64,000 nt of DNA from Spirochaetia bacterium (GCA_965225855.1 CBDDCK010000005.1:1-64000), one strand, 5' to 3'; counted from the stretch's first letter, positions 741 through 54,514 are shown. The notes: generated from the letters alone by a model not told the origin. Made by a program: numbers and translations.

Positions 741-1548
741 AAAAGGTAGTTTAGAACAAACGCTTTTAAACAATTCTATTGGAAGATTTTTATGAAAAAA
801 CAATGTAATACCTATTCTACGCTACTATGGGAATTTGACAAAGTCGATGCGCAAGCATTGTACCGAAGTATCATGAATAACAATGCTTGCCTATCGGCAC
901 AATTTGAAAAATGGCTAAACTTGTTTCCTAACTTTATCTGCAATAGTCTGGCTATTTTAATTGGCTATTTTAATTGGTGAACCAAAAAAACTTGTTTTTT
1001 TATTTCCTGCTACATTGAGAATCCTAATCCAAAGAGACCCTAGAATGTAAAATAATTATTGCATAATTCCAAAACTGTGCTGAGCTGCTGCCCAAGACCA
1101 ATAATACAAGGCAAAATACAAATCAAGTACCATTTCTGGAGGTTTCATCATAGTTAGCCGAACAGTAGAAATGATCAATCCAACAGGTTTACACACCCGT
1201 CCGGGCAAGCAAAGAGGGTGGGGCTTGATAATCCACCCCACCCCCAACCAACACCCCAAAGCAACAAACCCGATCAACACTGTATGGCCAAAGTTGTTTG
1301 CGCAAAGAGCCCCGACTAAATAGTTAATCCGGAACATGATAACTGAATGGGATAGGCGCGATAACTCGGGATTTTTTTGGGACAAATGGAAGGTAAAAAT
1401 TGGCTTACTTTCCAAAATAAAAAGGTAAAAAAATTTTTGTTTTTCGGCCTATGGGCCATTGTCGGCAGTAATTGGGCAACAATATGGCATCAAGTATCAA
1501 AATATCATGGTAACGGGCCACGGTCTCAAAAAGCTAGTAAGGTTTCTG

Positions 1549-1593
1549 AAAAAAGCTAGTAAGGTTTTCAGTCAAAACCTTACTAGCTTTTTT
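1549..1593. repeat. 20-bp perfect inverted repeat preceded by a direct copy of its left arm
   Basis: aaaaaagctagtaaggtttt-cagtc-aaaaccttactagctttttt; the arm also occurs 22 bp upstream. Confidence 0.85.
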
Positions 1594-1775
1594 GATTGGC
1601 AACCTGGGGATTTTCCAACAAACCCGATCAACACTGTATGGCCAAAGTTGTTTGCTTGAAGAGCCCCAGCTAAATACCCAGAAGCCCATATAGCCCAAGC
1701 TAAAGTACCCTAACACAAAAAAAGTGCCCAAACATAAAAAAGCACAAAAAAACTTACAAAAAGCTTACATGGGCC

Positions 1776-1802
1776 TTGACGCAACACCCCCCCTAGCAAA
1801 AT
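1776..1802 (+). promoter_or_regulatory. Putative promoter with C7 tract, conserved upstream of all 7 lipoprotein paralogues
   Basis: TTGACG-caaca-C7-tag-CAAAAT (15-nt spacer); GGAGG RBS before ATG 1866. Confidence 0.45.
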
Positions 1803-1865
1803 AGGGATTTACAGACTAGCCCGTATGGGTTGGCGAATCTTTATCCATTGTTGGAGGTATTGCTT

Positions 1866-3935
1866 ATGTATAAGCTCAAACTACTTTTATTGCCTGTAGC
1901 CTGGCTACTGGCCTTTATGGCCTTTGCCTGCGCACCACCCGATGACGATGATCGATCTTCTGCGCCGTCTGGGCCGACTATCAATAACGCTATCTACGAC
2001 TTTGCTACGGCTCTGTTAACCGTACAAGGTACTGACTTAAGTCCTACCAGTGTGAAACAAGCGCAAATCCAAACTATCAGGGTAGGAAGCCGAACAAATG
2101 GTGTAGCCTTAAGTTCCTATACTGCAGATGACCCAGCCACTGGGGTAAATAGTAACGGTCTTGCAAAAGGTAAGTACCGTATTAAAAGCGATGGCACAGC
2201 GCTTTGGCTGAAACTTACCGATGACGATAAAGCTACTCTTGAGGCCAAGGTGGGTAGCGATGGTCTAAAAAAAGGGTTGCTTACTAGCTCTGGTGCTTGG
2301 GCGGGTTTAAATACACCTAAAGACTTGGACGTTAGTAATGTACCCGAAAATAAGCAGTCTAAAGTATCCGATGACAATCAGCCATCTAAGCAAACTGAAG
2401 AAGCTGAACAAGACGAACAAGCTGAACAAGTCGAACAAGCTGAAGAGGAGTCGCGTAAACTACCCGAAGCCGAACAAGCTGAAGAGGAGTCGCGTAAACT
2501 ACCCGAAGCCGAACAAGCTGAAGAGGAGTCGCGTAAACTACCCGAAGCCGAACAAGCTGAAGAGGAGTCGCGTAAACTACCCGAAGCCGAACAAGCTGAA
2601 GAGGAGTCGCGTAAACTACCCGAAGCCGAACAAGCTGAAGAGGAGTCGCGTAAACTACCCGAAGCCGAACAAGCTGAAGAGGAGTCGCGTAAACTACCCG
2701 AAGCCGAACAAGCTGAAGAGGAGTCGCGTAAACTACCCGAAGCCGAACAAGCTGAAGAGGAGTCGCGTAAACTACCCGAAGCCGAAGAAACCGAACAGCA
2801 GTCGCCTAAGCAAACCGAACAAGCTGAACAAGCCGAACAAGCCGCAATTACCAGTGCAACCTACAATGTAAATACGGGTAAATTAGTGATTACAGGTACT
2901 AATTTACCGAAAACAGTTGCAGAATGGGACTTTATCAAATTGACGCTTGTATCCGGTGATGGTAGTGATAGATTCACATTACCCCGGCACTCATTAGATA
3001 AAAACAGTGCCAGAGGTTTTGCAGCAAGTACAACAAGCTTAACGATTACTTTAAAGGGTAGTGTAAAAGCGGAAGCCGAGAAGATACTGGTTAAGGTTGG
3101 TGATAGTGATAATAATGGTGCATACAACCTTGAAGCAGCAGCAGGATTTGTAATTGGTAGCGCAGAAGACACAAGCAATAACCCTATTACCGTTAGTGAG
3201 TATGCAGCCAGCATCACCAGAGCAACCTACGATGCTAATACAGGTAAGTTACAGATTCAGGGTAGGAATTTACCGAGAGCAGTTGCAGACTGGGACTTTA
3301 GCAAATTGACGCTTGTATCCGGTGATGGTAGAAATAGATACCCATTACCCCGGCACTCAACTGCAGGTGAAAACACAGCCACAGGTTCTAGTGCAAATGT
3401 AACAGGCTTATTGATTACTTTAAGCGGTACTGAAAAAGCCAAAGCCAATGCTATACTGGTTAAGTCTGGTGGTAGTGATAATAATGGTGCATACAACCTG
3501 GAAGCAGCAGCAGGATTTGCAGGTGGTAGTGCAGAAGACACAAGCAATAACCCGATTACCGTTAGTGGCTACGTAATCTTGCTCAAAACCGTATCATATA
3601 TATCTCATAGAAGTTTGTTACATATTAGTGGTAGCAGGTTACCGACAGCAGTTGCAGACTGGGACTTTAGCAAATTGACGCTTGTATCCGGTGATGGTAA
3701 GAAGAGATACACATTACCCCGGCACTCAACTACAGGTGCAAACAAAGCCACAGGTTCTCGTGCAAGTAGAACAAGCTTAAATATTACTTTAAGCGGTATT
3801 GTAAAAGCCAAAGTCGAGGCTATACTGGTTAAGGTTGGTGATAGTGATAATAATGGTGCATACAACCTGGAAGCAGCAGCAGAATTTGTACCTGGTAGTC
3901 CAGAAGACCTAACCACTAGTATATACAAGTTATAA
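1866..3935 (+). CDS. Modular surface lipoprotein, paralogue 1 (A-linker-B-B-B)
   Basis: GGAGG RBS then ATG 1866; signal peptide with lipobox AFMAFAC; E/Q-rich linker; three ~120-aa repeats with WDFSKLTLVSGDG and YNLEAAAGF. Confidence 0.9.
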   Translation: MYKLKLLLLPVAWLLAFMAFACAPPDDDDRSSAPSGPTINNAIYDFATALLTVQGTDLSPTSVKQAQIQTIRVGSRTNGVALSSYTADDPATGVNSNGLAKGKYRIKSDGTALWLKLTDDDKATLEAKVGSDGLKKGLLTSSGAWAGLNTPKDLDVSNVPENKQSKVSDDNQPSKQTEEAEQDEQAEQVEQAEEESRKLPEAEQAEEESRKLPEAEQAEEESRKLPEAEQAEEESRKLPEAEQAEEESRKLPEAEQAEEESRKLPEAEQAEEESRKLPEAEQAEEESRKLPEAEQAEEESRKLPEAEETEQQSPKQTEQAEQAEQAAITSATYNVNTGKLVITGTNLPKTVAEWDFIKLTLVSGDGSDRFTLPRHSLDKNSARGFAASTTSLTITLKGSVKAEAEKILVKVGDSDNNGAYNLEAAAGFVIGSAEDTSNNPITVSEYAASITRATYDANTGKLQIQGRNLPRAVADWDFSKLTLVSGDGRNRYPLPRHSTAGENTATGSSANVTGLLITLSGTEKAKANAILVKSGGSDNNGAYNLEAAAGFAGGSAEDTSNNPITVSGYVILLKTVSYISHRSLLHISGSRLPTAVADWDFSKLTLVSGDGKKRYTLPRHSTTGANKATGSRASRTSLNITLSGIVKAKVEAILVKVGDSDNNGAYNLEAAAEFVPGSPEDLTTSIYKL
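2433..2786 (+). repeat. 39-bp coding tandem repeat x9 (AEEESRKLPEAEQ)
   Basis: gctgaagaggagtcgcgtaaactacccgaagccgaacaa recurs every 39 bp. Confidence 0.95.
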
Positions 3936-3981
3936 TTCGGTAAGTAGGGTTTGGTTGTTGCAACCCTTGCATTGGCCAAAA

Positions 3982-4200
3982 GCAGCCTTGGTAAGTTTTT
4001 TATCAAGGCTGCTTTTACCAATTATAGCCTTGGTATGGAGAAAATACCAAGGCTATAAATTTTTTTATTAAGGCTGTAAATTTTTTTGTCAAGGCTACAA
4101 ATTTTTTTGTCAAGGCTGTAAATTTTTTTATTAAGGCTGCTTTTGCCAATTATAGCCTTGGTAAATTTTTTTATCATGGCTGCTTTTACCAATTATAGCC
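3982..4200 (+). repeat. Downstream hairpin and 21-bp tandem array (terminator-like)
   Basis: Hairpins gcagccttg...caaggctgc and tatagccttggtat...ataccaaggctata; 21-bp units aaggctRYaaatttttttRtY. Related copies at ~10780-10880, 21837-21890, 38485-38700 and 48200-48250. Confidence 0.8.
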
Positions 4201-4384
4201 ATTCTGGAAAGTAGAAAAAAATCGAGTTATCACTTCCTGCATCACTACGATAGACGAATTTAGATAGCGGAATAATTTTAAAGAAAGTGCTGCATCAGCA
4301 AGTGTGGCATTTTGCTTTAAGTCTTTTTTTAAGGCTTAAAGCAATGTTTAGTCCAATTTTGGGTTAATGGGGCTTATGGGTAAT

Positions 4385-18412: not shown

Positions 18413-18625
18413 TGAAAGAGGACATGATAACTGAACGGGATAAGACGCGATAACTCGGGATTTTTTGGAACAAATGGGAAGGTAAAGGCGAAAGGGCTTC
18501 AGATAAAAAAGCCTAAAACATAGCCAAACGATTATTAATGATCGGCTGGTAAAAGAAATTTTAGCTAAGGCTAAAGCAGAGCTTGAGAACAATACCGATA
18601 AATAAATACCCCAGCCCCTCTAACC

Positions 18626-18838
18626 ATAGAATTACCTCGCACCTATTCAATAGAATTGACCCAAATCTATTGATAGAATTACCTCGCACCTATTCAATAG
18701 AATTGACCCAAATCTATTGATAGAATTACCTCGCACCTATTCAATAGAATTGACCCAAATCTATCAATAGAATTACCTCCCACCTATTGATAGAATTGAC
18801 CCAAATCTATCAATAGATTTACCTCCCACCTATTGATA
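18626..18838. repeat. Alternating 24/23-bp (47-bp) tandem array, ~4.5 units
   Basis: atagaattacctcgcacctattca / atagaattgacccaaatctattg; shorter copy at 45745-45840. Confidence 0.9.
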
Positions 18839-18840
18839 CC

Positions 18841-19248
18841 CTAGTCTTTAATGAAATTTTCTACATCGGCAATACGCAGTTTGCCCGATAGCAATTGGGG
18901 CAAAAGTGTATCCCTAATTTTAGTTAAAGTTTGGTTTTCTATTTTGTTATCAATGTGTGAAATATTTTTATTCAATGTATAGCAGATTATTTGATTGGGA
19001 GACACATTTGAGACGGCATATAGTGCGTATGATTGAAAAGCTTTTTTATGTTTAATGGCACATAATCCACGACCTATACAACAATCATCGGAAATCGTTG
19101 GCCAAATTCTGAACGCCCCTGAAAGAATAATATCCCGTTTTCATTTTCATTAAATGTTTCACCTTTTGGAGATTGCCCCATAGTGTAATCAAGGTGTAAT
19201 CAAGGTGTAATCAAGTATTTTATTCAATTCTACACTTTCCCACCCCCC
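18841..19248 (-). pseudogene. hsdS: Type I restriction-modification specificity subunit remnant
   Basis: Manual translation gives GWESVELNKILDYT / MGQSPKGETFNENENGILFFQGRSEFGQRFP / DDCCIGRGLCAIK...ENQTLTKIRDTLLPQLLSGKLRI*, which are HsdS TRD and conserved-region motifs, with deletions and frameshifts. Confidence 0.8.
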
Positions 19249-19457
19249 CAAAGGCCAAACAAAGGCCAACACCCCACCCCACCCAAGACTTTTGATTGGC
19301 ATTGATTTTTAACCACCTTACAACACTAAAAAAACACAAAAAAACTTACAAAAAGCTTATATAGACCTTGACGCAACACCCCCCCTAGCAAAATAGGGAT
19401 TTACACACTAGCCCGTATGGGTTGGTTAATCTTTATCCATTGTTGGAGGTATTGCTT

Positions 19458-21791
19458 ATGTATAAGCACAAACTATTTTTATTGCCATTAGCATTGCTAC
19501 TGGCCTTTATGGCCTTGGCCTGCGCCCCACCCGATGACGATGATCGATCTTCTGGGCCTGCAATCACCAGTGCAAGCTACGACTTTGCTACGGCGCTGTT
19601 AACCGTACAAGGTACTGACTTAAGTCCTACAGAAGCCCAAATCCAAACTATCACGGTAGCTGGCCTAGCCTTAAGTTCCTATACTGCAGATGACCCAGCC
19701 ACTGGGTCAGATAGTAGCGATCTTGCAAAAGGTAAGTACCGTATTAAAAGCGATGGCACAGAGCTTTGGCTGAAACTTACCGAGCAACATAAAGCTGTTC
19801 TTGAGGCCAAGGTGGGTAGCGATGGTCTAAAAAAAGGGTTGCTTACTAGCTCTGGTGCTTGGGCGGGTTTAGATACAGCCAAAGACTTAACCGTTAGGAA
19901 TATACCCGCAGCCGAACAAGTCGATGATCAATCGCGTAAGCAAACTGAAGACGAAGAAGCTGAAGAAGAGTCGCCTAAGCAACCTAAAGACAAACAAGTC
20001 GAACAAGCTGAAGAAGAGTCGCCTAAGCAACCTAAAGACAAACAAGTCGAACAAGCTGAAGAAGAGTCGCGTAAGTTACCCGAAGCCGAACAAACCGAAG
20101 AAGTCGATGATGAATCGCCTAAGCAACCTAAAGACAAACAAGTCGAACAAGCTGAAGAAGAGTCGCGTAAGTTACCCGAAGCCGAACAAACCGAAGAAGT
20201 CGATGATGAATCGCCTAAGCAACCTAAAGCCGAACAAGTCGAACAAGCTGAAGAAGAGTCGCCTAAGCAACCTAAAGCCGAACAAGTCGAACAAGTCGAA
20301 GAGGATTCGCCTGAAGCCGCAATTACCGGTGCAAGCTACAATGTTGGCACGGCGCTGCTAACCGTACAAGGTTCTAACTTAAGTCCTACAGAAGCGCAAA
20401 TCCAAACCATCACGGTAGGAAGCCGAACAAATGGCGTAGCTTTAGATTCCTATACTGCAGATACCACAGCCACTGGGGCAGATAGTCACAGTCTTGCAAA
20501 AGGTAAGTACCGTATTAAAAGCGATGGCACAGCCATTTGGCTTTACCTTACCGATCGACATAAAACTACTCTGAATGGCAAGCCCGGTATGGATAGCAAT
20601 GGTCTAAAAGATGGGTTGCTTACTAGCACTGGTACTTGGGCGGGTTTAGATACAGCCAAAGCCTTGGCCGTTAGTGGAAACCCACCCGCAATTACCAGTG
20701 CAACCTACCATGTTGGCACGGCGCTGTTAACCGTACAAGGTTCTAACTTAAGTCCTACAACTGCGACCCAAGCCCAAATCCAAACCATCACGGTAGATGG
20801 GATAGCTTTAGATTCCTATACTGCAGATGGCACAGCCACTGGGCCAGATAGTCGTAGTCTTGCAAAAGGTAAGTACCGTATTAAGAGCGATGGCACAAAG
20901 ATTTGGCTTTACCTTACCGATCAACATAAAACTACTCTGAATGGCAAGGACGGTATGGATACCAATGGTCTAAAAGATGGGTTGCTTACTAGCACTGGTG
21001 CTTGGGCGGGTTTAGATACAGCCAAAGCCTTAACTGTTAGTGGAAACCCACCCACAATTACCCGTGCAACCTACAATGCTAATACAGGCGTGTTAGTGAT
21101 TACAGGTGTCAATTTACCGACAGCAGTTGCAAGATGGGACTTCACCAAATTGAGGTTTGTCGCAGGTAATGGTGATAAGAGTGCCCCATTATTCCGGCAC
21201 TCCGTATATGGAACTATAAGCTTTGCCAAAGGTTCTGCAGCAAGTTCAACAAGCTTAACGATTCTTTTAAAGGGTAGTGAAAAATGGAAAGCCGAGAAGA
21301 TACTGTTTAAGAATGGTGATAGTGATGATAATGGTGCATACAACCTGGAAGCAGCAGCAGGCTTTGCAGGTGGTAGCGCTGAAGACACAAGCAATAACCC
21401 TATTACCGTTAGTGGCTACATAAGCAAGATCAACTCCGTACTCTACTCTACTATTGAAGGCATATTATTGATTGAGGGTGCCAATTTACCGAGAACAGTT
21501 GCAGAGTGGGACTTTAGCAAATTGACGATTGTATCCGGTGATGGTAATAAGAGATACACATTACCCCAGCACGCAACTGCAGGTGAAAACACAGCCACAG
21601 GTTCTATGGGGGTAAATAGACGCAGATTATTTATTACTTTAAGCGGTAGTGTAAGAGCGGAAGCCGAGAAGATACTGGTTAAGGTTGGTAAAAGTGATAA
21701 TAATGGTGCATACAACCTTGAAGTAGCAGCAGGATTTGTAATGGGTGGTTTAGCATACCCAACCAATGCTATTAAAGTTGTAAATTATTAA
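19458..21791 (+). CDS. Modular surface lipoprotein, paralogue 3 (A-linker-A-A-B-B)
   Basis: RBS, lipobox and repeats as in the other copies. Confidence 0.9.
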   Translation: MYKHKLFLLPLALLLAFMALACAPPDDDDRSSGPAITSASYDFATALLTVQGTDLSPTEAQIQTITVAGLALSSYTADDPATGSDSSDLAKGKYRIKSDGTELWLKLTEQHKAVLEAKVGSDGLKKGLLTSSGAWAGLDTAKDLTVRNIPAAEQVDDQSRKQTEDEEAEEESPKQPKDKQVEQAEEESPKQPKDKQVEQAEEESRKLPEAEQTEEVDDESPKQPKDKQVEQAEEESRKLPEAEQTEEVDDESPKQPKAEQVEQAEEESPKQPKAEQVEQVEEDSPEAAITGASYNVGTALLTVQGSNLSPTEAQIQTITVGSRTNGVALDSYTADTTATGADSHSLAKGKYRIKSDGTAIWLYLTDRHKTTLNGKPGMDSNGLKDGLLTSTGTWAGLDTAKALAVSGNPPAITSATYHVGTALLTVQGSNLSPTTATQAQIQTITVDGIALDSYTADGTATGPDSRSLAKGKYRIKSDGTKIWLYLTDQHKTTLNGKDGMDTNGLKDGLLTSTGAWAGLDTAKALTVSGNPPTITRATYNANTGVLVITGVNLPTAVARWDFTKLRFVAGNGDKSAPLFRHSVYGTISFAKGSAASSTSLTILLKGSEKWKAEKILFKNGDSDDNGAYNLEAAAGFAGGSAEDTSNNPITVSGYISKINSVLYSTIEGILLIEGANLPRTVAEWDFSKLTIVSGDGNKRYTLPQHATAGENTATGSMGVNRRRLFITLSGSVRAEAEKILVKVGKSDNNGAYNLEVAAGFVMGGLAYPTNAIKVVNY

Positions 21792-22151
21792 GTAGGGTTT
21801 GGTTGTTGCTGTAAGCAAGGCTCTTGGTTGGCCTATTGCAGCCTTGGTAAGTTTTTTATCAAGGCTGCAATAAGCCAATTCTAGCCATTCTGGAAAGTAG
21901 AAGAGTCGAGTTATCACGTCCGATGGCACAAAGTTATCACGTCCTGCATCAACATTATATCTGTACTTATCATCATACAAGGATAGTATGTTACAATCTT
22001 TATGATGGTTGTACCTCCATAAAGATTGTATTTTATTTTTGTAGATATATTCTTATCTAAATATTAAGTTAGTTCTATTTACAAAAATGAAACGCCCTTA
22101 CTATCGTCATGTAGGGTCGTATTATTCAACTTTATTCATTTTTGATGAATT

Positions 22152-34839: not shown

Positions 34840-36390
34840 TTACTGGAAACGAGGCTTATATTCCTCTTGCCATTTATCTACCCCATGATCAAAATGCTTA
34901 CGCTTTATGACTCGGTTTACTTCCCAGCTGCTTAGGTCTTGATTAAAGGCTCGGGCAAAATAAAACATATCCTCCATATTGGTAACTTTAGAAACATTCC
35001 ATTCGTTAATTGGTTGGTTAAAAGCGGTTGCCCCATGAAACATGAATCCCATATCGGTAACTTTGGTCGTATTCCAATTACCAATTGGCTGGTTAAAGGC
35101 GTATGCCTTAAAAAACATGAATCCCATATCGGTAACTTTGGCTGTATTCCACTTGTCGCCATTGGTGTTGATGGGCTGGTTAAAGGCTTCTGCCTCACCA
35201 AACATCAAGCGCATATCGGTAACTTTAGCGGTATTCCAATTGCCAATTGGCTGGTTAAAGGCTTGTGCCTCATAAAACATGGCTTTCATATTTGTAACTT
35301 GGGCGGTATTCCAATTGCCAATTGGTTGGTTAAAGGTTTGTGCCTTACGAAACATGTATTTCATATCGGTAACATTGGCCGTGTTCCAATTGCCAATTGG
35401 TTGGTTAAAAGCTTCTGCCCCATCAAACATGTGTTCCATATTGGTAACTTTGGCCGTGTTCCAATTGCCAATTGGTTGGTTAAAAGCCTTTGTCCTTCCG
35501 AATAAACCCGACATATTGATAACATTGGAAGTATCCCAGTTGCCAATTGGCTGGTTAAAGGCTTCTGTCATACCAAACATAACGTACATATTGGCAACAT
35601 TGGCGGTATCCCAATCGCCAATCGGTTGGTTAAACGCTTGTGTTCGAACGAATAAACCGCTCATATCGGTAACGTTGGCGGTATCCCAATCGCCAATCGG
35701 TTGGTTAAAAACTTTTGCTTCCGCAAACATAAATCGCATGTTGGCAACGTTGGAAACATCCCAACAGTTTATTGCACCATTAAAGTCAGTCTTACTAAAA
35801 ACCTTGCTTAAGTCGGTTATCTGGGAAGTATCTATAGCTTGTAAATCATCACCAGTTAATTTACTGTCGCCCGTTACCAGTGCTTTAAGCTGTTCGGTGG
35901 TGGCGGGCTTGTGTTCTGTACTTGGTGGCGGGCAGCCACTTTTTCGTACGGTGAATTTATAGAGTTTTGTGTGGCCGCCTCCATCAACCTTTACCTCATA
36001 CGCTCCGACTCGTTCGTCTGCGGGTATGGTGAGTTTTGCTGTTTGGCTTGTGGAGCTTAGCTTTGTCCAAGTGCGGCCCAACGAGCTATCGTCTTTTTTG
36101 CCACGCTTGCGCCATTGCCAGCTCAACTCCCCGCTACCTTCGGTTACAACGCTAAAGGTAATCGCTTTGCTTTGGAATACCCAGGCCGTTGTGCTCGCAT
36201 CTATGCCTCCATGGTCGGTATCGGTTTGGCTGAGAATCCCCCCCAAAGAGATAATCCCCTTGCCGTTATTATTATTGCTAAGGTCTCCTTTGTCTTCATC
36301 TAAGTCACCACACGAAAACATTAGAAAAAGGCCAAGCAAAGCGAAAAAGTCAACAAGGCGATGATTACTATTCAGATGATTACTATTCAT
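34840..36390 (-). CDS. DUF285 (BspA-like) repeat surface lipoprotein
   Basis: AGGAG RBS before ATG 36390; LMFSC lipobox; 25-aa repeats FNQPIGNWNTAKVTNM..MF. Confidence 0.9.
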   Translation of the reverse strand: MNSNHLNSNHRLVDFFALLGLFLMFSCGDLDEDKGDLSNNNNGKGIISLGGILSQTDTDHGGIDASTTAWVFQSKAITFSVVTEGSGELSWQWRKRGKKDDSSLGRTWTKLSSTSQTAKLTIPADERVGAYEVKVDGGGHTKLYKFTVRKSGCPPPSTEHKPATTEQLKALVTGDSKLTGDDLQAIDTSQITDLSKVFSKTDFNGAINCWDVSNVANMRFMFAEAKVFNQPIGDWDTANVTDMSGLFVRTQAFNQPIGDWDTANVANMYVMFGMTEAFNQPIGNWDTSNVINMSGLFGRTKAFNQPIGNWNTAKVTNMEHMFDGAEAFNQPIGNWNTANVTDMKYMFRKAQTFNQPIGNWNTAQVTNMKAMFYEAQAFNQPIGNWNTAKVTDMRLMFGEAEAFNQPINTNGDKWNTAKVTDMGFMFFKAYAFNQPIGNWNTTKVTDMGFMFHGATAFNQPINEWNVSKVTNMEDMFYFARAFNQDLSSWEVNRVIKRKHFDHGVDKWQEEYKPRFQ

Positions 36391-36471
36391 ATAAACACTC
36401 CTTATGAATAAAGAATTTTTACGATACATTACTCAATCGCTTTTTAAATGCATAATATTTTTTGCGCAGCA

Positions 36472-38214
36472 TCAAGAGTTAAAGGGAGGTTTGGCTTGTT
36501 GCCATTTTCTGGCATCCCGACTAAAACCATCACTTTTAACATTTTTATTTACCTTCCATCTACTTAAATCTTGATTAAAAGAATGTGCACCCCAAAACAT
36601 AAATCTCATATCGGTAACTTGAGCAACGTCCCAATCGCCAATATCTTGGTCAAAAGTGTTTGCACCCGCAAACATATGGTACATGTTGGTAACTTTGGCG
36701 GTGTTCCACTGGCCAATCGGCTGGTTGAAAGCGTCTGCTTCATAAAACATATGGTACATGTTGGTAACTTTGGCGGTGTTCCACTTGTCGCCATTGGTGT
36801 TGATGGGCTGGTTAAACGCCCTTGCGTCAAGAAACATCTTTTTCATACTGGTCACGTTGGCGGTGTTCCACTCGCCAATGGGCTGGTTAAAAGCTCTTGC
36901 GCCAAGAAACATAGCGGCCATATTGGTAACTTTGGCGGTATTCCACTTGTCGCCATTGGTGTTGATGGGCTGGTTAAAAGCTATTGCGTTCGTAAACATA
37001 TTTACCATGTTGGTCACGTTGGCGGTATTCCAGTTGCCAATGGCTTGGTTAAACGCGGTTGCATAGTAGAACATAGCGGCCATGTTGGTCACGTTGGCGG
37101 TATCCCAATTGCCAATCGGTTGGTCAAATACTTTTGCACTATCAAACATAAATCGCATGTCCTGAACGTTGGCGGTATTCCAGTTGCCAATGGCTTGATT
37201 AAAAGCGGTTGCTTCACTAAACATAGCGTACATATTGGTCACTTTGGCGGTATTCCAGTGGCCAATCGGTTGGTTAAATACTTTTGCTTCATTAAACATA
37301 GCGTACATATTGGTCACGTTGGCGGTATTCCAATTGCCAATTGGTTGGTTAAAGGCTTCTGCCCCATCAAACATGTGTTCCATATTGGTCACGTTGGCGG
37401 TATTCCAATTGCCAATGGGCTGGTTAAAAGCCTTTGTCCTTCCGAATAAACCTGACATATTGATAACATTGGAAGTATCCCAGTTACCAATTGGCTGGTT
37501 AAAGGCTTCTGTCATACCAAACATTAACTTCATATTGGCAACGTTGGAAACATCCCAGCAGTTTATTGCACCATTAAAGTCAGTCCTAATAAAAACCTTG
37601 CTTAAGTCGGTTATCTGGGAAGTATCTATAGCTTGTAAATCATCGCCAGTTAATTTACTGTCGCCTGTTACCAGTGCTTTAAGCTGTTCGGTGGTGGCGG
37701 GCTTGTGTTCTGTACTTGGTGGCGGGCAGCCACTTTTTCGTACGGTGAATTTATAGAGTTTTGTATGGCCGCCTCCATCAACCTTTATTTCATAGGCGCC
37801 GACTCTTTCGTCTTCGGGTATGGTGAGTTTTGCTGTTTGGCTTGTGGAGCTTAGCTTTGTCCAAGTGCGGCCCAACGAGCTATCGTCTTTTTTGCCACGC
37901 TTGCGCCATTGCCAGCTCAACTCCCCGCTACCTTCGGTTACAACGCTAAAGGTAATCGCTTTGCTTTGGAATACCCAGGCCGTTGTGCTCGCATCTATGC
38001 CTCCATGGTCGGTATCGGTTTGGCTGAGAATCCCCCCCAAAGAGATAATCCCCTTGCCGTTGTCTTCATCTAAGTCACCACACGAAAACATTAGAAAAAG
38101 GCCAAACAAGGCGAGAGTTACTCTTTTAAATCTTGTCGATGCTGTGTGAGAGCCGCAAAAATAGTGGGCTAAATAATGGATTTGGTAGAACCGATTGGTT
38201 GGGCGGTTATTCAT
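36472..38214 (-). CDS. DUF285 (BspA-like) repeat surface lipoprotein, tandem paralogue
   Basis: N-domain near-identical to the neighbour; 25-aa repeats. Confidence 0.9.
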   Translation of the reverse strand: MNNRPTNRFYQIHYLAHYFCGSHTASTRFKRVTLALFGLFLMFSCGDLDEDNGKGIISLGGILSQTDTDHGGIDASTTAWVFQSKAITFSVVTEGSGELSWQWRKRGKKDDSSLGRTWTKLSSTSQTAKLTIPEDERVGAYEIKVDGGGHTKLYKFTVRKSGCPPPSTEHKPATTEQLKALVTGDSKLTGDDLQAIDTSQITDLSKVFIRTDFNGAINCWDVSNVANMKLMFGMTEAFNQPIGNWDTSNVINMSGLFGRTKAFNQPIGNWNTANVTNMEHMFDGAEAFNQPIGNWNTANVTNMYAMFNEAKVFNQPIGHWNTAKVTNMYAMFSEATAFNQAIGNWNTANVQDMRFMFDSAKVFDQPIGNWDTANVTNMAAMFYYATAFNQAIGNWNTANVTNMVNMFTNAIAFNQPINTNGDKWNTAKVTNMAAMFLGARAFNQPIGEWNTANVTSMKKMFLDARAFNQPINTNGDKWNTAKVTNMYHMFYEADAFNQPIGQWNTAKVTNMYHMFAGANTFDQDIGDWDVAQVTDMRFMFWGAHSFNQDLSRWKVNKNVKSDGFSRDARKWQQAKPPFNS

Positions 38215-45224: not shown

Positions 45225-45842
45225 CGATCGCTTGTATAAAGTCCAGTTATTTGGTTGAATCGTTTGGAGGCTATTAATAGGCTATAACATTCCGAACTAA
45301 TAATTATCTATTAAATCCGATAGAAAGTATTTAATCGGCTACTTAGAAAGTATCTTGTTTAGTAGTATCAATTCAAATGCCTATTTTAAGAATTAGGAAA
45401 ACCAGAGTATATTCTAAAGACTAGCAAAAGCCTAGTCTAGGTTGCCTTTTGTGAAGCACTTAAATTTAGCTACACAAAACAAGCCACCTCTAAAGGAATC
45501 CACTGCCTTATTTGCTTTTTTTGTGGCTATAGGGTGTAATATAGCACCGGCCGCTAGGTTAGTAGTGGCTCTTTAATGAAAGAGGACATGATAACTGAAC
45601 GGGATAAGACTTGATAACTCGGGATTTTTTGGCACAAATGGGAAGGTAAAATTGGCTTACTTCCCAAAATAAAAAGGTAAAAAGATTTTTCATTGCACTA
45701 GAAAAAGCCAGAATCCATTTTTAACACCAAAGCCCCCTCTAACCATAGAATAACCTCCCACCTATGTAATAGAATCGACCCAAATCTATCTATAGAATTA
45801 CCTCCCACCTATTGATAGAATCGACCCAAATCTATTGATACC

Positions 45843-46050
45843 CTAGTCTTTAATGAAATTTTCTACATCGGCACATAATCCAGGACCTATACAACAATCA
45901 TCGGCAATCGTTGGCCAAATTCTGAACGCCCCTGAAAGAATAATATCCCGTTTTCATTTTCATTAAATGTTTCACCTTTTGGAGATTGCCCCATAGTGTA
46001 ATTAAGGTGTAATCAAGTATTTTATTCAATTCTACACTTTCCCACCCCCT
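45843..46050 (-). pseudogene. hsdS: Shorter hsdS remnant (further deleted copy of 18841-19248)
   Basis: Near-identical DNA to the E3 relic but lacking ~190 bp bounded by a ggca microhomology. Confidence 0.75.
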
Positions 46051-46416
46051 CAAGCCTTCACAATAAAGACCAAACCATGCCATAACTATGTACTTTTGAA
46101 AAGTAACAATTATGGACTAGGTCGGTCCATAGTTATCGACTTGTTGCGTCTATAACTATGGATTGGTTGCTTTGATGGTTCATAGATTACAATAATATGG
46201 AATGCAAATGGATTGGCATGGATTTTTAACCACCTTACAACACTAAAAAACAACACTAACACACAAAAAAAGTGCCCAAAACATAAAAAAAGCACAAAAA
46301 AAGTTTGCAAAAATCTTATATAGGCCTTGACGCAACACCCCCCCTAGCAAAATGGGGCACTGTACACTAGCCCGTATGGGTTGGCGAATCTTTATCCATT
46401 TTTGGAGGTATTGCTT

Positions 46417-48153
46417 ATGTATAAGCTCAAACTACTTTTATTGCCTGTAGCATTGCTACTGGCCTTTATGGCCTTGGCCTGCGCCCCACCCGATGACGAT
46501 GATCGATCTTCTGGGCCGACTAAGCCGACTATCAATAACGCCATCTACGATTTTACTACGGCTCTGTTAACCGTACAAGGTACTGACTTAAGTCCTACAG
46601 AAGCCCAAATCCAAACTATCAGGGTAGCTGGCCTAGCCTTAAATTCTTATACTGCCACAGCCACTGGGGTAAATAGTAACGGTCTTAAACAAGGTCAGTA
46701 CCGTATTGCAAACGATGGCACTGCGATTTGGCTTAGACTTACCGATCGACATAAAGCTGCTCTGAATGGCAAGACAGGTATGGATAGCAATGGTCTAAAA
46801 AAAGGGTTGCTTACTAGCTCTGGTGCTTGGGCGGGTTTAAATACAGCCAAAGACTTGGAAGTTAGGAATATACCCGAAAATAAGCAGTCTAAAGTATCCG
46901 ATGACAATCAGCCATCTAAGCAAACTGAAGACGAACAAGCTGAAGAAGACGAACAAGCCGAACAAACCGAAGAAGTCGAAGATAAGCAGTCTAAGACCGA
47001 AGCCGAAGATCAGTCGCCTAAGCAACCTAAAGACGAACAAGCTGAACAAGTCGAAGAGGAGTCGCCTAAAGCCGCAATTACCGGTGCAACCTACAATGTT
47101 GGCACGGCTCTGCTAAATTTACAAGGTTCTAACTTAAGTGCTACAACTGCGACCCAAGCGCAAATCCAAACTATCACGGTAGATGGCGTAGCCTTAAGTT
47201 CCTATATTGCAGATGCCACAGCCACTGGGCCAGATAGTCGCAGTCTTGCAAAAGGTAAGTACCGTATTAAAAGCGATGGCACAGCACTTTGGCTGAAACT
47301 TACCGATGCCGATAAAGCTACTCTGAATGGCAAGACAGGTATGGATAGCAATGGTCTAAAAAAAGGATTGCTTAGCGTTGGCACTGGTACTTGGGCGGGT
47401 TTAGATACAGCCAAAGACTTGGACGTTAGTGGAAACCCCGCACCCACAATTACCAGTGCAACCTACAATGCTATTACAGGCGTGTTAGTGATTACAGGTG
47501 TCAATTTACCGTCAACAGTGGATCGCTGGGACTTTAGGAAATTGAGGTTTGTCGCAGGTAATGGTCGTAATAAATACACATTACCCGGTCACTACCCAAC
47601 CGGTAATAACATAGCCACAGGTTCTGCAGCAAGTGCAACAAGCTTAACGATTACTTTAGGCCGTTATCAACGCAATAGAGCCAATAGGATATTGGTTAAG
47701 AATGGTGATAGTGATGTTGATGGTGCATACAACCTGGAAGCAGCAGCAGGATTTGCAGGTGGTAGGGCTGAAGACACAAGCAATAACCCGATTACCGTTA
47801 GTGGGTATGTAATTTCTATCACTGGAGCATACTACAATCCTAATAATGGCAATTTATTGATTCAGGGTACTAATTTACTGACAACAATTGCAGAGTGGGA
47901 CTTTAGCAAATTGACGCTTGTATCCGGTGATGGTAGTAAGAGATACAAATTACCCCGGCACGCAACCACAGGTGAAAACAGAGCCGAAGGTTCTAATGCA
48001 AGTGCAGTAAGCGTATTGATTACTTTAAGCGGTAGTGTAAAAGCCAAAGTCGATGCTATACTGGTTAAGAATGGCAACCTGGAAGCAGCAGCAGGATTTG
48101 TACCTGGTAGCGCAGAAGACCTAACCAATAATAAGATTATAGTTTTTAATTGA
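46417..48153 (+). CDS. Modular surface lipoprotein, paralogue 6 (A-linker-A-B-B)
   Basis: RBS, lipobox and repeats. Confidence 0.9.
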   Translation: MYKLKLLLLPVALLLAFMALACAPPDDDDRSSGPTKPTINNAIYDFTTALLTVQGTDLSPTEAQIQTIRVAGLALNSYTATATGVNSNGLKQGQYRIANDGTAIWLRLTDRHKAALNGKTGMDSNGLKKGLLTSSGAWAGLNTAKDLEVRNIPENKQSKVSDDNQPSKQTEDEQAEEDEQAEQTEEVEDKQSKTEAEDQSPKQPKDEQAEQVEEESPKAAITGATYNVGTALLNLQGSNLSATTATQAQIQTITVDGVALSSYIADATATGPDSRSLAKGKYRIKSDGTALWLKLTDADKATLNGKTGMDSNGLKKGLLSVGTGTWAGLDTAKDLDVSGNPAPTITSATYNAITGVLVITGVNLPSTVDRWDFRKLRFVAGNGRNKYTLPGHYPTGNNIATGSAASATSLTITLGRYQRNRANRILVKNGDSDVDGAYNLEAAAGFAGGRAEDTSNNPITVSGYVISITGAYYNPNNGNLLIQGTNLLTTIAEWDFSKLTLVSGDGSKRYKLPRHATTGENRAEGSNASAVSVLITLSGSVKAKVDAILVKNGNLEAAAGFVPGSAEDLTNNKIIVFN

Positions 48154-48298
48154 TGTTGGTAAGTAAGGTTTGGTTGTTGCAACGCTTGCATTGGCCAATT
48201 GCAGCCTTGGTAAGTTTTTTTATCAAGGCTGCTTTTGCCAAGTTATAGCCATTCTGGAAAGTAGAAGAGTCGAGTTATCACGTCCTGCATCACTTTAA

Positions 48299-52900: not shown

Positions 52901-53416
52901 TTACATCAATTTAAGCAAGCCCAAGATACCGATAACTAGGCCAATGCCTGTTCCTATAAACCATTGCAACATCAAAAACCTTTTATCCATATTCTGTTGC
53001 ATAGCTTCAAAGCGCTTGTCGACTTGTTCAAAGCGTTTATCAATGCTTTGCTGCATAGCTTCAAAGCGCTTGTCGACTTGTTCAAAGCGTTTATCGATAC
53101 TTTGTTGCATAGCCTCAAAGCGCTTGTCGACTTGTTCAAAGCGCTTGTCCATTTGCTGCATAAAGGTTTTAAGCACTTCTTGGTTTTGTTGCAGCAGCTC
53201 CCTTTGGTGCTTGAGCTCTTCTTCCACACGCACCATGCGTTCTAGTAGTTCGGGCCCATAATTGGGCCTTTCGGCTTTAGCGGGTGCTGGCAATGGTTGC
53301 TGCGCCAATTGGTCTTGTAGTTGGCGCTGCACTTCCTTAGCTAAATTTTCTTTTAGTAGGTTTTCGATTAGGTCTTGTATCGAAGCTTGGTCATGGTGTT
53401 CGGCTAAATTATTCAT
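52901..53416 (-). CDS. Bdr/DUF1640-like coiled-coil repeat membrane protein, short allele
   Basis: DKRFEQV and DKRFEAMQQSI repeats; C-terminal TM helix. Confidence 0.8.
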   Translation of the reverse strand: MNNLAEHHDQASIQDLIENLLKENLAKEVQRQLQDQLAQQPLPAPAKAERPNYGPELLERMVRVEEELKHQRELLQQNQEVLKTFMQQMDKRFEQVDKRFEAMQQSIDKRFEQVDKRFEAMQQSIDKRFEQVDKRFEAMQQNMDKRFLMLQWFIGTGIGLVIGILGLLKLM

Positions 53417-53422
53417 TAGCCC

Positions 53423-53451
53423 AATATAGCCTAAAGTGTAAACAAAGTCAA
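53423..53451 (-). promoter_or_regulatory. sigma70 promoter, probably giving leaderless mRNA (second copy at 54521-54549)
   Basis: TTGACT-17-TATATT-gggcta-ATG; no RBS. Confidence 0.65.
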
Positions 53452-53686
53452 GGCTTGGTCTAAACTTTTGCTAAAAAAGTCAACGCAATGGTTTGGTTGT
53501 ACCAAGCCCAAAACAACAAGGGCAAATAAGGTAGTGGATTGTAAAAACTAGATTCCCATAACGGGAATTATTCCACTACCAAGCGGGTAGTACCCACAAA
53601 CCAAGCTAGTCGTAACCCACTAACCACTTGGTAGTGGGTTACGACTAGCTTGGTTTGTCTAACAAAAAGGCAAGCAACCGTAGGGC

Positions 53687-54514
53687 TTACATCAATTTAA
53701 GCAAGCCCAAGATACCGATAACTAGGCCAATGCCTGTTCCTATAAACCATTGCAACATCAAAAACCTTTTATCCATATTCTGTTGCATAGCTTCAAAGCG
53801 CTTGTCCATGTTTTGCTGCATAACTTCAAAGCGTTTATCCACTTGTTCAAAGCGTTTGTCCATGTTTTGCTGCATAGCTTCAAAGCGTTTATCGATGCTT
53901 TGTTGCATAGCTTCAAAGCGTTTATCGATGCTTTGTTGCATAGCTTCAAAGCGTTTATCGATACTTTGCTGAATAGCTTCAAAGCGCTTGTCCATTTGCT
54001 CAAAGCGCTTGTCGATACTTTGCTGCATAGCTTCAAAGCGCTTGTCCATTTGCTCAAAGCGCTTATCAATACTTTGTTGCATAGCCTCAAAGCGCTTGTC
54101 GACTTGTTCAAAGCGCTTGTCGACTTGTTCAAAGCGCTTGTCGACTTGTTCAAAGCGCTTGTCGACTTGTTCAAAGCGCTTGTCGACTTGTTCAAAGCGC
54201 TTGTCGACTTGTTCAAAGCGCTTGTCGACTTGCTCAAAGCGCTTGTCCATTTGCTGGATAAAGGTTTTAAGCACTTCTTGGTTTTGTTGCAGCAGCTCCC
54301 TTTGGTGCTTAAGCTCTTCTTCGACCCGCACCATGCGTTCGAGTAGTTCGGGCCCATAATTGGGCCTTTCGACTTTGGCGAGTGCTGGCAATGGTTGCTG
54401 CGCCAATTGGTCTTGTAGTTGGCGCTGCACTTCCTTAGCTAAATTTTCTTTTAGTAAGTTTTCGATTAGGTCTTGTATCAAGGCTTGGTCATGGTGTTCA
54501 GCTAAATTATTCAT
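53687..54514 (-). CDS. Bdr/DUF1640-like coiled-coil repeat membrane protein, long allele
   Basis: Near-identical ends to 52901-53416, with expanded 21-bp and 33-bp repeats. Confidence 0.8.
   Translation of the reverse strand: MNNLAEHHDQALIQDLIENLLKENLAKEVQRQLQDQLAQQPLPALAKVERPNYGPELLERMVRVEEELKHQRELLQQNQEVLKTFIQQMDKRFEQVDKRFEQVDKRFEQVDKRFEQVDKRFEQVDKRFEQVDKRFEQVDKRFEAMQQSIDKRFEQMDKRFEAMQQSIDKRFEQMDKRFEAIQQSIDKRFEAMQQSIDKRFEAMQQSIDKRFEAMQQNMDKRFEQVDKRFEVMQQNMDKRFEAMQQNMDKRFLMLQWFIGTGIGLVIGILGLLKLM

Follow-up and report, generated by a model that had tools for sequence, protein, structure and literature searches.

How a single predicted lipoprotein gene of a Spirochaetia bacterium came to lie between transposon-type ends, with no transposase gene inside them, is the question raised by one locus in the 64-kb stretch of DNA analyzed here (the window). 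At this locus, CTTTAA (45571-45576) is followed directly by TGA (45577-45579) at the left boundary of the element, and TCA (48290-48292) is followed by a second CTTTAA (48293-48298) at its right boundary, so the element spans the 2716 bp between the two copies. A sequence-only reading of the window had proposed such a CTTTAA-bracketed element, containing a repeat array, an hsdS relic, a promoter module, and lipoprotein paralogue 6. The exact coordinates are present in the sequence, and each of these components was located within the element. The lipoprotein gene, which is number six among the seven family members of the window, is the only long ORF inside it. The features of the element and of two sister elements in the window are as follows.

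45571..45576, + strand: left CTTTAA copy (6-bp target duplication), from the sequence
45577..45730, + strand: left arm, phage-derived, with a TGA terminus and two 23-bp-period repeats, from an alignment of 31 left ends
45584-45596 and 45607-45619, + strand: left-arm repeats, predicted transposase-binding sites, from the end alignment
45738..45835, no strand: tandem array of 2.1 copies of a 47-bp unit, within a module common to ~30-50 loci
45887..45994, - strand: relic of HsdS (type I restriction specificity subunit), 31 aa, from matches to structure chains and plasmid HsdS
46041..46416, + strand: upstream module common to most family genes
46327..46353, + strand: promoter-like site (TTGACG, 15-bp spacer with a C7 run at 46338-46344, CAAAAT), predicted to be phase-variable, from a pattern match
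46417..48153, + strand: predicted lipoprotein gene, 578 aa, from ORF, alignment, and structure model
48154..48244, + strand: downstream repeat module common to ~80-100 loci
48245..48292, - strand: right arm, phage-derived, with a TCA end and one 23-bp-period repeat (two are usual)
48293..48298, + strand: right CTTTAA copy (6-bp target duplication), from the sequence
1325..4244, + strand: sister element carrying paralogue 1, without a duplication (5 of 6 flank positions mismatched), left terminus TAA rather than TGA
18413..21951, + strand: sister element carrying paralogue 3, without an exact duplication (flanks agree at 4 of 6 positions)

The repeat GAC.TGATAACT occurs twice at the left end of the element, 23 bp apart, and once at the right end, where most right ends genome-wide have two. 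The HsdS relic matches two solved HsdS chains (E 2e-4) as well as plasmid HsdS genes, and the module that contains it occurs about 25 times upstream of family genes, both with and without ends. The same ends had been described around paralogues 1 and 3; they are present at both loci, but neither pair is flanked by an exact duplication. Elsewhere in the window, two tandem proteins with DUF285 repeats of 75-bp period (34840-38214), which form a second family of likely surface proteins, and two genes with 21-bp coiled-coil repeats (52901-54514) were observed. Sequence related to the latter genes lies on both flanks of another element (C1:5963-8996, on contig C1).

As the sequence-only reading had stated, no transposase lies in the window: profile scans of 39 window ORFs detected no transposase family. 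When the whole genome (2.71 Mb in 5 contigs, 94% complete) was searched with the rve profile, a single match was obtained, a 586-aa ORF outside the window at C5:1273165-1274925. The rve_3 profile, which matches 8 of 14 controls, had no match in the genome, and Mu-transpos_C matched neither the genome nor any control and is therefore uninformative. The rve ORF sits in a 36.1-kb prophage (C5:1257677-1293766) containing terminase, portal, major head, sheath, baseplate, repressor, and late-activator families. Its product matches phrog_310 (E 2e-70); among the 25 records listed out of 69, its identity to transposases of B3, BcepMu, and their relatives is 28-37%. The DDE residues D144, D238, and E274 align with those of B3 and are intact, and the gene order (DUF3102, transposase, one extra gene, ATPase) is that of B3. 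The transposase and the ATPase are full length when compared with those of a related prophage in G002, a genome of the same genus (for the ATPase, 279 versus 283 aa, 68%).

The ends of this prophage identify it as the relative of the element. Its right end is intact and is the right end of the elements, and its left end retains the repeats and has lost the terminal bases. Positions 45588-45730 and 48245-48285 of the element are 81% and 88% identical to the left and right prophage ends, respectively. The DDE transposase with the same ends for which the sequence-only reading had proposed a search was thus found, together with an ATPase partner, and the description of the element as non-autonomous, of DDE type, with a 6-bp duplication and a transposase elsewhere, is supported. 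According to parts of PMC8705779, B3 has TG-CA ends and makes 6-bp duplications, and such prophages are 36-39 kb long. The resident prophage has a DDE transposase, an AAA ATPase, and head and tail modules within 36.1 kb; it lacks two intact TG...CA termini and a duplication, as its flanks differ, and its virion genes are broken (the portal is short, the baseplate gene is frameshifted, and the tape measure is split) while its transposition genes are open.

The family assignment made from the window, to Tn552/IS481-type elements, did not survive this comparison. That the helper is an ordinary element of this type, with only a secondary likeness to the prophage ends, would agree with the 6-bp duplications common to a "B3/Tn552 family" in parts of PMC8705779, and a further transposase could escape an assembly that is 94% complete and in 5 contigs. 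This explanation is nonetheless highly improbable. The one rve match in the assembly is in the prophage and rve_3 has none, the arms match the phage beyond the repeats, for up to ~270 bp in left arms and 349 bp in right arms, and the related G002 prophage has the same type of end. With no non-phage rve transposase between such ends in this 94% complete assembly, an IS481/Tn552 identity is largely refuted. A phage satellite was also considered and rejected, as the element encodes the lipoprotein as its only long ORF and no helper-exploiting genes.

Other parts of such phages are present in the assembly: the phage right ends number three or more and are 97-100% alike, and there is a long left arm. 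Phage pieces occur at contig ends, where C4 has 8.2 kb of the right end and C3 has 774 bp; the left arm at C5:2030137, which is intact, also lies near a contig end. Since these pieces run into contig ends, an intact helper may lie in an assembly gap. In the stretch C5:2030137-2033073, the intact left arm is followed by an AIPR-family gene and then the contig end, and an ArdC-like gene lies near the left end of the resident prophage. A 46-bp-period repeat with a palindromic core is found at C5:1264372-1264475 and 1292605-1292855, downstream of the short portal and broken baseplate genes, and at about a dozen other loci, near several family genes.

Related phages have similar ends. The G002 prophage, whose transposase is 54% identical, has the same repeat type with a 23-bp period, and each of its ends occurs once in that genome. 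Amplified phage ends were not found in G001 or G002, where left ends occur twice and once, respectively. In G001, two B3-type prophage copies (C4:24914 and 895520), with one end located, apparently start with TA rather than TG; such starts are reported for some Leptospira prophages in parts of PMC8705779. Searching for the two-repeat pattern returned 17 genome matches and 12 viral ones, among which only a locus of the spirochaete Ca. Haliotispira prima also matched a gene of the prophage: there, the same left-end type lies beside a 53% homolog, which by itself would make a spirochaete host likely. The twelve viral contigs have a similar 23-bp-period repeat, with a related transposase in none of the five tested. 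The exact right end gave 2 unrelated metagenome matches and no viral match.

The proposed tabulation of flanking 6-mers was performed across the genome. It contains 31 left and 32 right ends, forming 18 facing pairs within 20 kb; 17 enclose a single family gene, and one encloses 14 kb. An exact 6-bp duplication flanks 5 of the 18 pairs, and an exact duplication of 3, 4, 5, or 7-10 bp flanks none. Five exact 6-mers would be obtained by chance with a binomial p of 2.5e-11 (n = 17, with a match probability of 0.0013 per pair derived from the base bias of the flanks themselves). Matches of 6-mers between different loci were within chance (3 versus 1.3 expected, p 0.14). All ends share one target bias, as 28 of the 48 unique flank 6-mers are centered on TA or TT. 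The insertions are intergenic: when the eight exact-match junctions were rejoined in silico, no long frame crossed any of them (shorter side ≤92 nt), so there is no split gene to prove insertion.

With ends that it shares with the prophage, a 6-bp duplication, and no internal transposase, and with an open transposase/ATPase gene pair in the prophage, the element is very probably a natural mini-Mu: short pieces of both ends of a B3/BcepMu-type prophage of this genome around one host gene, likely inserted by the transposase of that phage acting in trans. Its two phage ends face inward, its transposase lies elsewhere, and its duplication is of the length made by the B3 type. In the proposed pathway, a family gene would have ended up between left and right phage ends, the arms of which were shortened by internal deletions. 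When phage early genes were expressed, the transposase would bind the 23-bp-period repeats, cut at the CA-3′ ends, and insert the unit with a 6-bp stagger, mostly at intergenic sites centered on TA or TT. Gene conversion among the ~110 paralogues would then scramble the cargo, and crossovers or adjacent deletions would part some ends from their original flanks, leaving unduplicated pairs and one-ended copies. Each copy would bring its own promoter with a poly-C spacer, likely switched on and off by slippage.

The structure of the arms bears on whether the mini-element itself was the unit that moved. Left arms comprise 73-271 bp of the phage end, and 24 of 30 are collinear deletion products in which another segment of the long arm at C5:2030137 follows. 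Most copies have a right arm of 43-73 bp, whereas two have one of ~320-349 bp, and these two length classes suggest at least two captures. Base 13 of the right end is C in all five full phage-type ends and T in the mini-elements, and all five duplication-bearing mini-elements share one form of the left terminus, unlike the phage-type left terminus. These differences from the phage copies argue that the mini-element itself was moved, and the arm-to-cargo junctions shared between loci point to few founding events.

It could instead be proposed that whole prophages transposed first, making the 6-bp duplications, and that recombination through the arms later replaced their interiors with a lipoprotein cassette, so that no mini-element ever moved. 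The several phage right ends and the long left arm in the assembly, the internally deleted phage pieces that adjoin family genes (C5:1036215-1041147 and C5:1594979-1595467), and the plainly frequent recombination among loci are all consistent with this order of events. It would have to operate, however, through right-arm homology of just 43-73 bp in most copies and should leave phage-type termini, whereas the terminal bases of the mini-elements differ at fixed positions; the few founding events implied by the shared junctions also count against it. We consider this order of events unlikely.

The natural mini-Mu identity leaves 13 of the 18 facing pairs without an exact duplication to be accounted for. 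The simplest account of these pairs is probably that crossovers and adjacent deletions took place after insertion, and several signs of such events are present. Truncated ends occur in the genome. Five left ends have one repeated outer flank in common, indicating that these ends were copied together with the flank. At C5:1508059 and 1385280, two genes that are inverted and have similar termini show a left/right 6-mer match, and one element (C5:402242-405702) has a 232-bp direct repeat (99.1% identical), rather than a 6-bp one, that abuts both of its ends exactly. The flanks of the 14-kb pair (C5:1027022-1041147) agree at 5 of 6 positions; between its ends lie phage fragments and an ABC-transporter-like operon as well as two family genes, and it is possibly a composite or intermediate form. 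At C5:1594979-1598895, a family gene lies between two inward-facing right ends, one of which has internal phage fragments.

Precise empty sites, which the sequence-only reading had proposed to look for in related strains or reads, did not appear among the contig-based joints listed for runs X1, X4, X5, and X6 at two stretches. A contig from X5, another study, spans the left junction of the element with the element in place, and a contig from X1, possibly the source sample, spans the right junction. Contigs from X1 and X6 (two studies) depart from the reference at a point 92 bp ahead of the left end at C5:1620029, which hints at variation between strains. Gene order at three insertion sites (folA/hisG, lnt/murJ, and the dnaJ side) is not conserved in the genomes G001-G003, where the adjacent genes were not found within 1.5 kb of each other. 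Within the genome, no near-identical donor copy was found for any duplication-bearing element, and thus nothing shows recent movement.

The cargo belongs to a family of 110 genes of ≥380 aa and 7 shorter matches, which together occupy 229 kb, or 8.5% of the genome. Its homologs are almost confined to this genome: 85 of 92 matches in a homolog search were attributed to its contigs and 7 to other ENA contigs, and the family was not found in G001-G005 with the query used. The predicted signal peptide has a Cys22 that is invariant in 61 of 61 aligned sequences, which predicts lipidation. In a structure model (mean pLDDT 72, 61 sequences), a signal helix and four β-sandwich domains are accompanied by an acidic linker, disordered and of low complexity, at about residues 155-216 of the 578-aa protein. 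The fold matches are generic Ig-like ones, the best being to the S-layer protein SbsC (Z 8.3, rmsd 2.8 over 94 residues). No credible Pfam family was found for the cargo protein, and Atlas matches were either without names or gave an SWM-repeat lead. From the modeled fold and the variability of the family, its members may function as adhesins, coat proteins, or antigens.

The distribution of ends across the family limits how much of its spread can be attributed to the element. Both ends adjoin 17 of the 110 genes, a left end only 13, a right end only 10, and no end 70. The two kinds of end tend to be found at the same genes (odds ratio 8.8, p 1e-5), and possession of ends is unrelated to gene sequence lineage. 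The genes are mosaic, as the 5′ and 3′ parts share a nearest neighbor in only 10 of 107 (three of the 110, which lack the start motif, were left out). The 70 end-less genes have ragged boundaries, and a same-orientation left-arm trace was found in 2 of them. Because 68 of these 70 lack such a trace, the element accounts for at most about one third of the present family loci. The proposal that the element dispersed the family across the chromosome was therefore overstated: 40 of the 110 genes do touch an end, but most genes are end-less, most facing pairs are unduplicated, and the empty-site search found none. At a lower strength, the element likely contributed to the dispersal of some members of a surface-antigen repertoire that is probably switchable. 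C-run tracts mark the start of many end-less copies. Four C-runs (G-quadruplex-like on the other strand) occur within 1 kb upstream of 30 of the 110 genes, with 77 such motifs genome-wide; these motifs are copies of shared modules and so are not independent.

The same data raise the possibility that the ends are mostly fossils of a short past burst, and that the family spread mainly by RecA-type or illegitimate recombination through shared modules, dragging ends along. This is compatible with the mini-Mu identity, agreeing with it on origin and differing on present activity. The end-less majority with its ragged boundaries, the five left ends copied with one flank, the truncated ends, and the presence of the element at the same site in the contig of another study all fit a burst that has ended. 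Set against them are the near-intact state of ~60 ends, the single-copy nature of most outer flanks, the one target bias at all ends, and transposition genes that have stayed open although the virion genes are broken. We regard a past burst as a real possibility, with rather less than an even chance of being correct.

Besides its ends, each copy of the natural mini-Mu also carries a candidate regulatory site. A pattern of TTGAC(G/T/C), a C-run spacer, and CAAAAT or CACAAT is matched ~63 nt ahead of the start codon in 99 of 107 genes; the spacer is 15 bp long in 82 of them and 14 bp in 15, and one gene each has a spacer of 16 bp and of 17 bp. This assignment is a consensus match only, with a -10 hexamer that lacks its first T. 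A consensus promoter scan gave fewer sites than shuffled sequences and missed the site at 46327..46353 because its spacer is 15 bp. With a looser pattern (108 sites), the spacer run is C5 in 1, C6 in 20, C7 in 85, C8 in 1, and C9 in 1, lengths that may include homopolymer assembly errors. The genome has 136 C or G runs of 7, 85 of which are in promoter-like sites, and two runs of 8 and one of 9, two of these three being in promoter-like sites. The sole C9 run belongs to the gene at C5:800631, one of the five duplication-bearing elements. This run gives that copy a 17-bp spacer, suggesting phase variation. To judge from such patterns, the family may undergo slipped-strand phase variation, with few genes on at a time.

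In spirochaetes, phages have been linked to paralogous surface lipoproteins before, as the cp32 prophages of Borrelia carry Erp lipoproteins. These are whole plasmid prophages that do not transpose, and they differ in this from a mini-element. For the putative switch, the closest parallel is found in mycoplasmas, where, according to PMC2268961, indels in the -35/-10 spacer switch vlp, maa2, and vmm on or off. The Vlp lipoproteins of Mycoplasma hyorhinis resemble the present family in having a conserved leader and a variable-length homopolymer in this spacer (PMC2268961, in part), a feature seen here as C5-C9 across the paralogues. The family differs from Vlp in its ~110 dispersed copies, its C run, its Ig-like domains, and its link to phage ends, and its switching is predicted from sequence. 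What is new here is the presence of a predicted promoter-like site with a C5-C9 run between the hexamers in nearly every family gene.

The mini-Mu and mini-D3112 described in parts of PMC8705779, PMC5977238, and PMC5847225 are engineered tools. Like the element, they have two phage ends around non-phage DNA, encode no transposase, and depend on phage proteins supplied in trans. In contrast to them, the element is natural and amplified to about 30 end pairs, has B3-type ends and 6-bp duplications, and carries as cargo a member of a host multigene family with its own promoter-like site. It shares its transposase family, the DUF3102-transposase-ATPase order, TG...CA ends, the 6-bp duplication, and a 36-kb helper with B3/BcepMu-type phages, including Leptospira prophages (PMC8705779, in part). 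Unlike these phages, it retains no phage gene, and in the helper as assembled the left terminus is truncated and virion genes are broken. Tn3-derived mosaic non-autonomous transposons (TIMEs; PMC4133298, in part) and phytoplasma potential mobile units (PMC10210161, in part) likewise use mobile ends to multiply host-interaction or passenger genes; in the present case, a transposable phage is the source of the ends and there is normally one gene per unit. A natural mini-Mu with a host gene family as cargo was not encountered in the main texts, as far as covered, of the open-access PMC and bioRxiv literature, including PMC8987985; the prophage tables of PMC8705779, a source represented here in part, might list such remnants.

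A broader proposal is that the host took over a B3-type phage as an engine of antigen dispersal, keeping the transposase and ATPase while the virion genes decay, copying single cassettes, shuffling the Ig-like domains, and using the poly-C switch to turn on only one or a few of the ~110 genes at a time, the expressed copy being the C9 one, which is itself a mini-element with a duplication. We offer this tentatively, and consider it doubtful in its full form. Mini-Mu elements are known as laboratory tools, and the natural version that we propose here would carry and multiply a gene for a surface protein of its host, so that the expansion of a variable-antigen family of 110 genes, occupying 8.5% of the genome, would be tied to a transposable phage. 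Should the poly-C switch prove real, on/off control would be encoded in the cassette as well. The ~60 scattered ends would be a source of chromosome rearrangement, and this organism would offer a compact, testable case of phage transposition machinery feeding surface variation.
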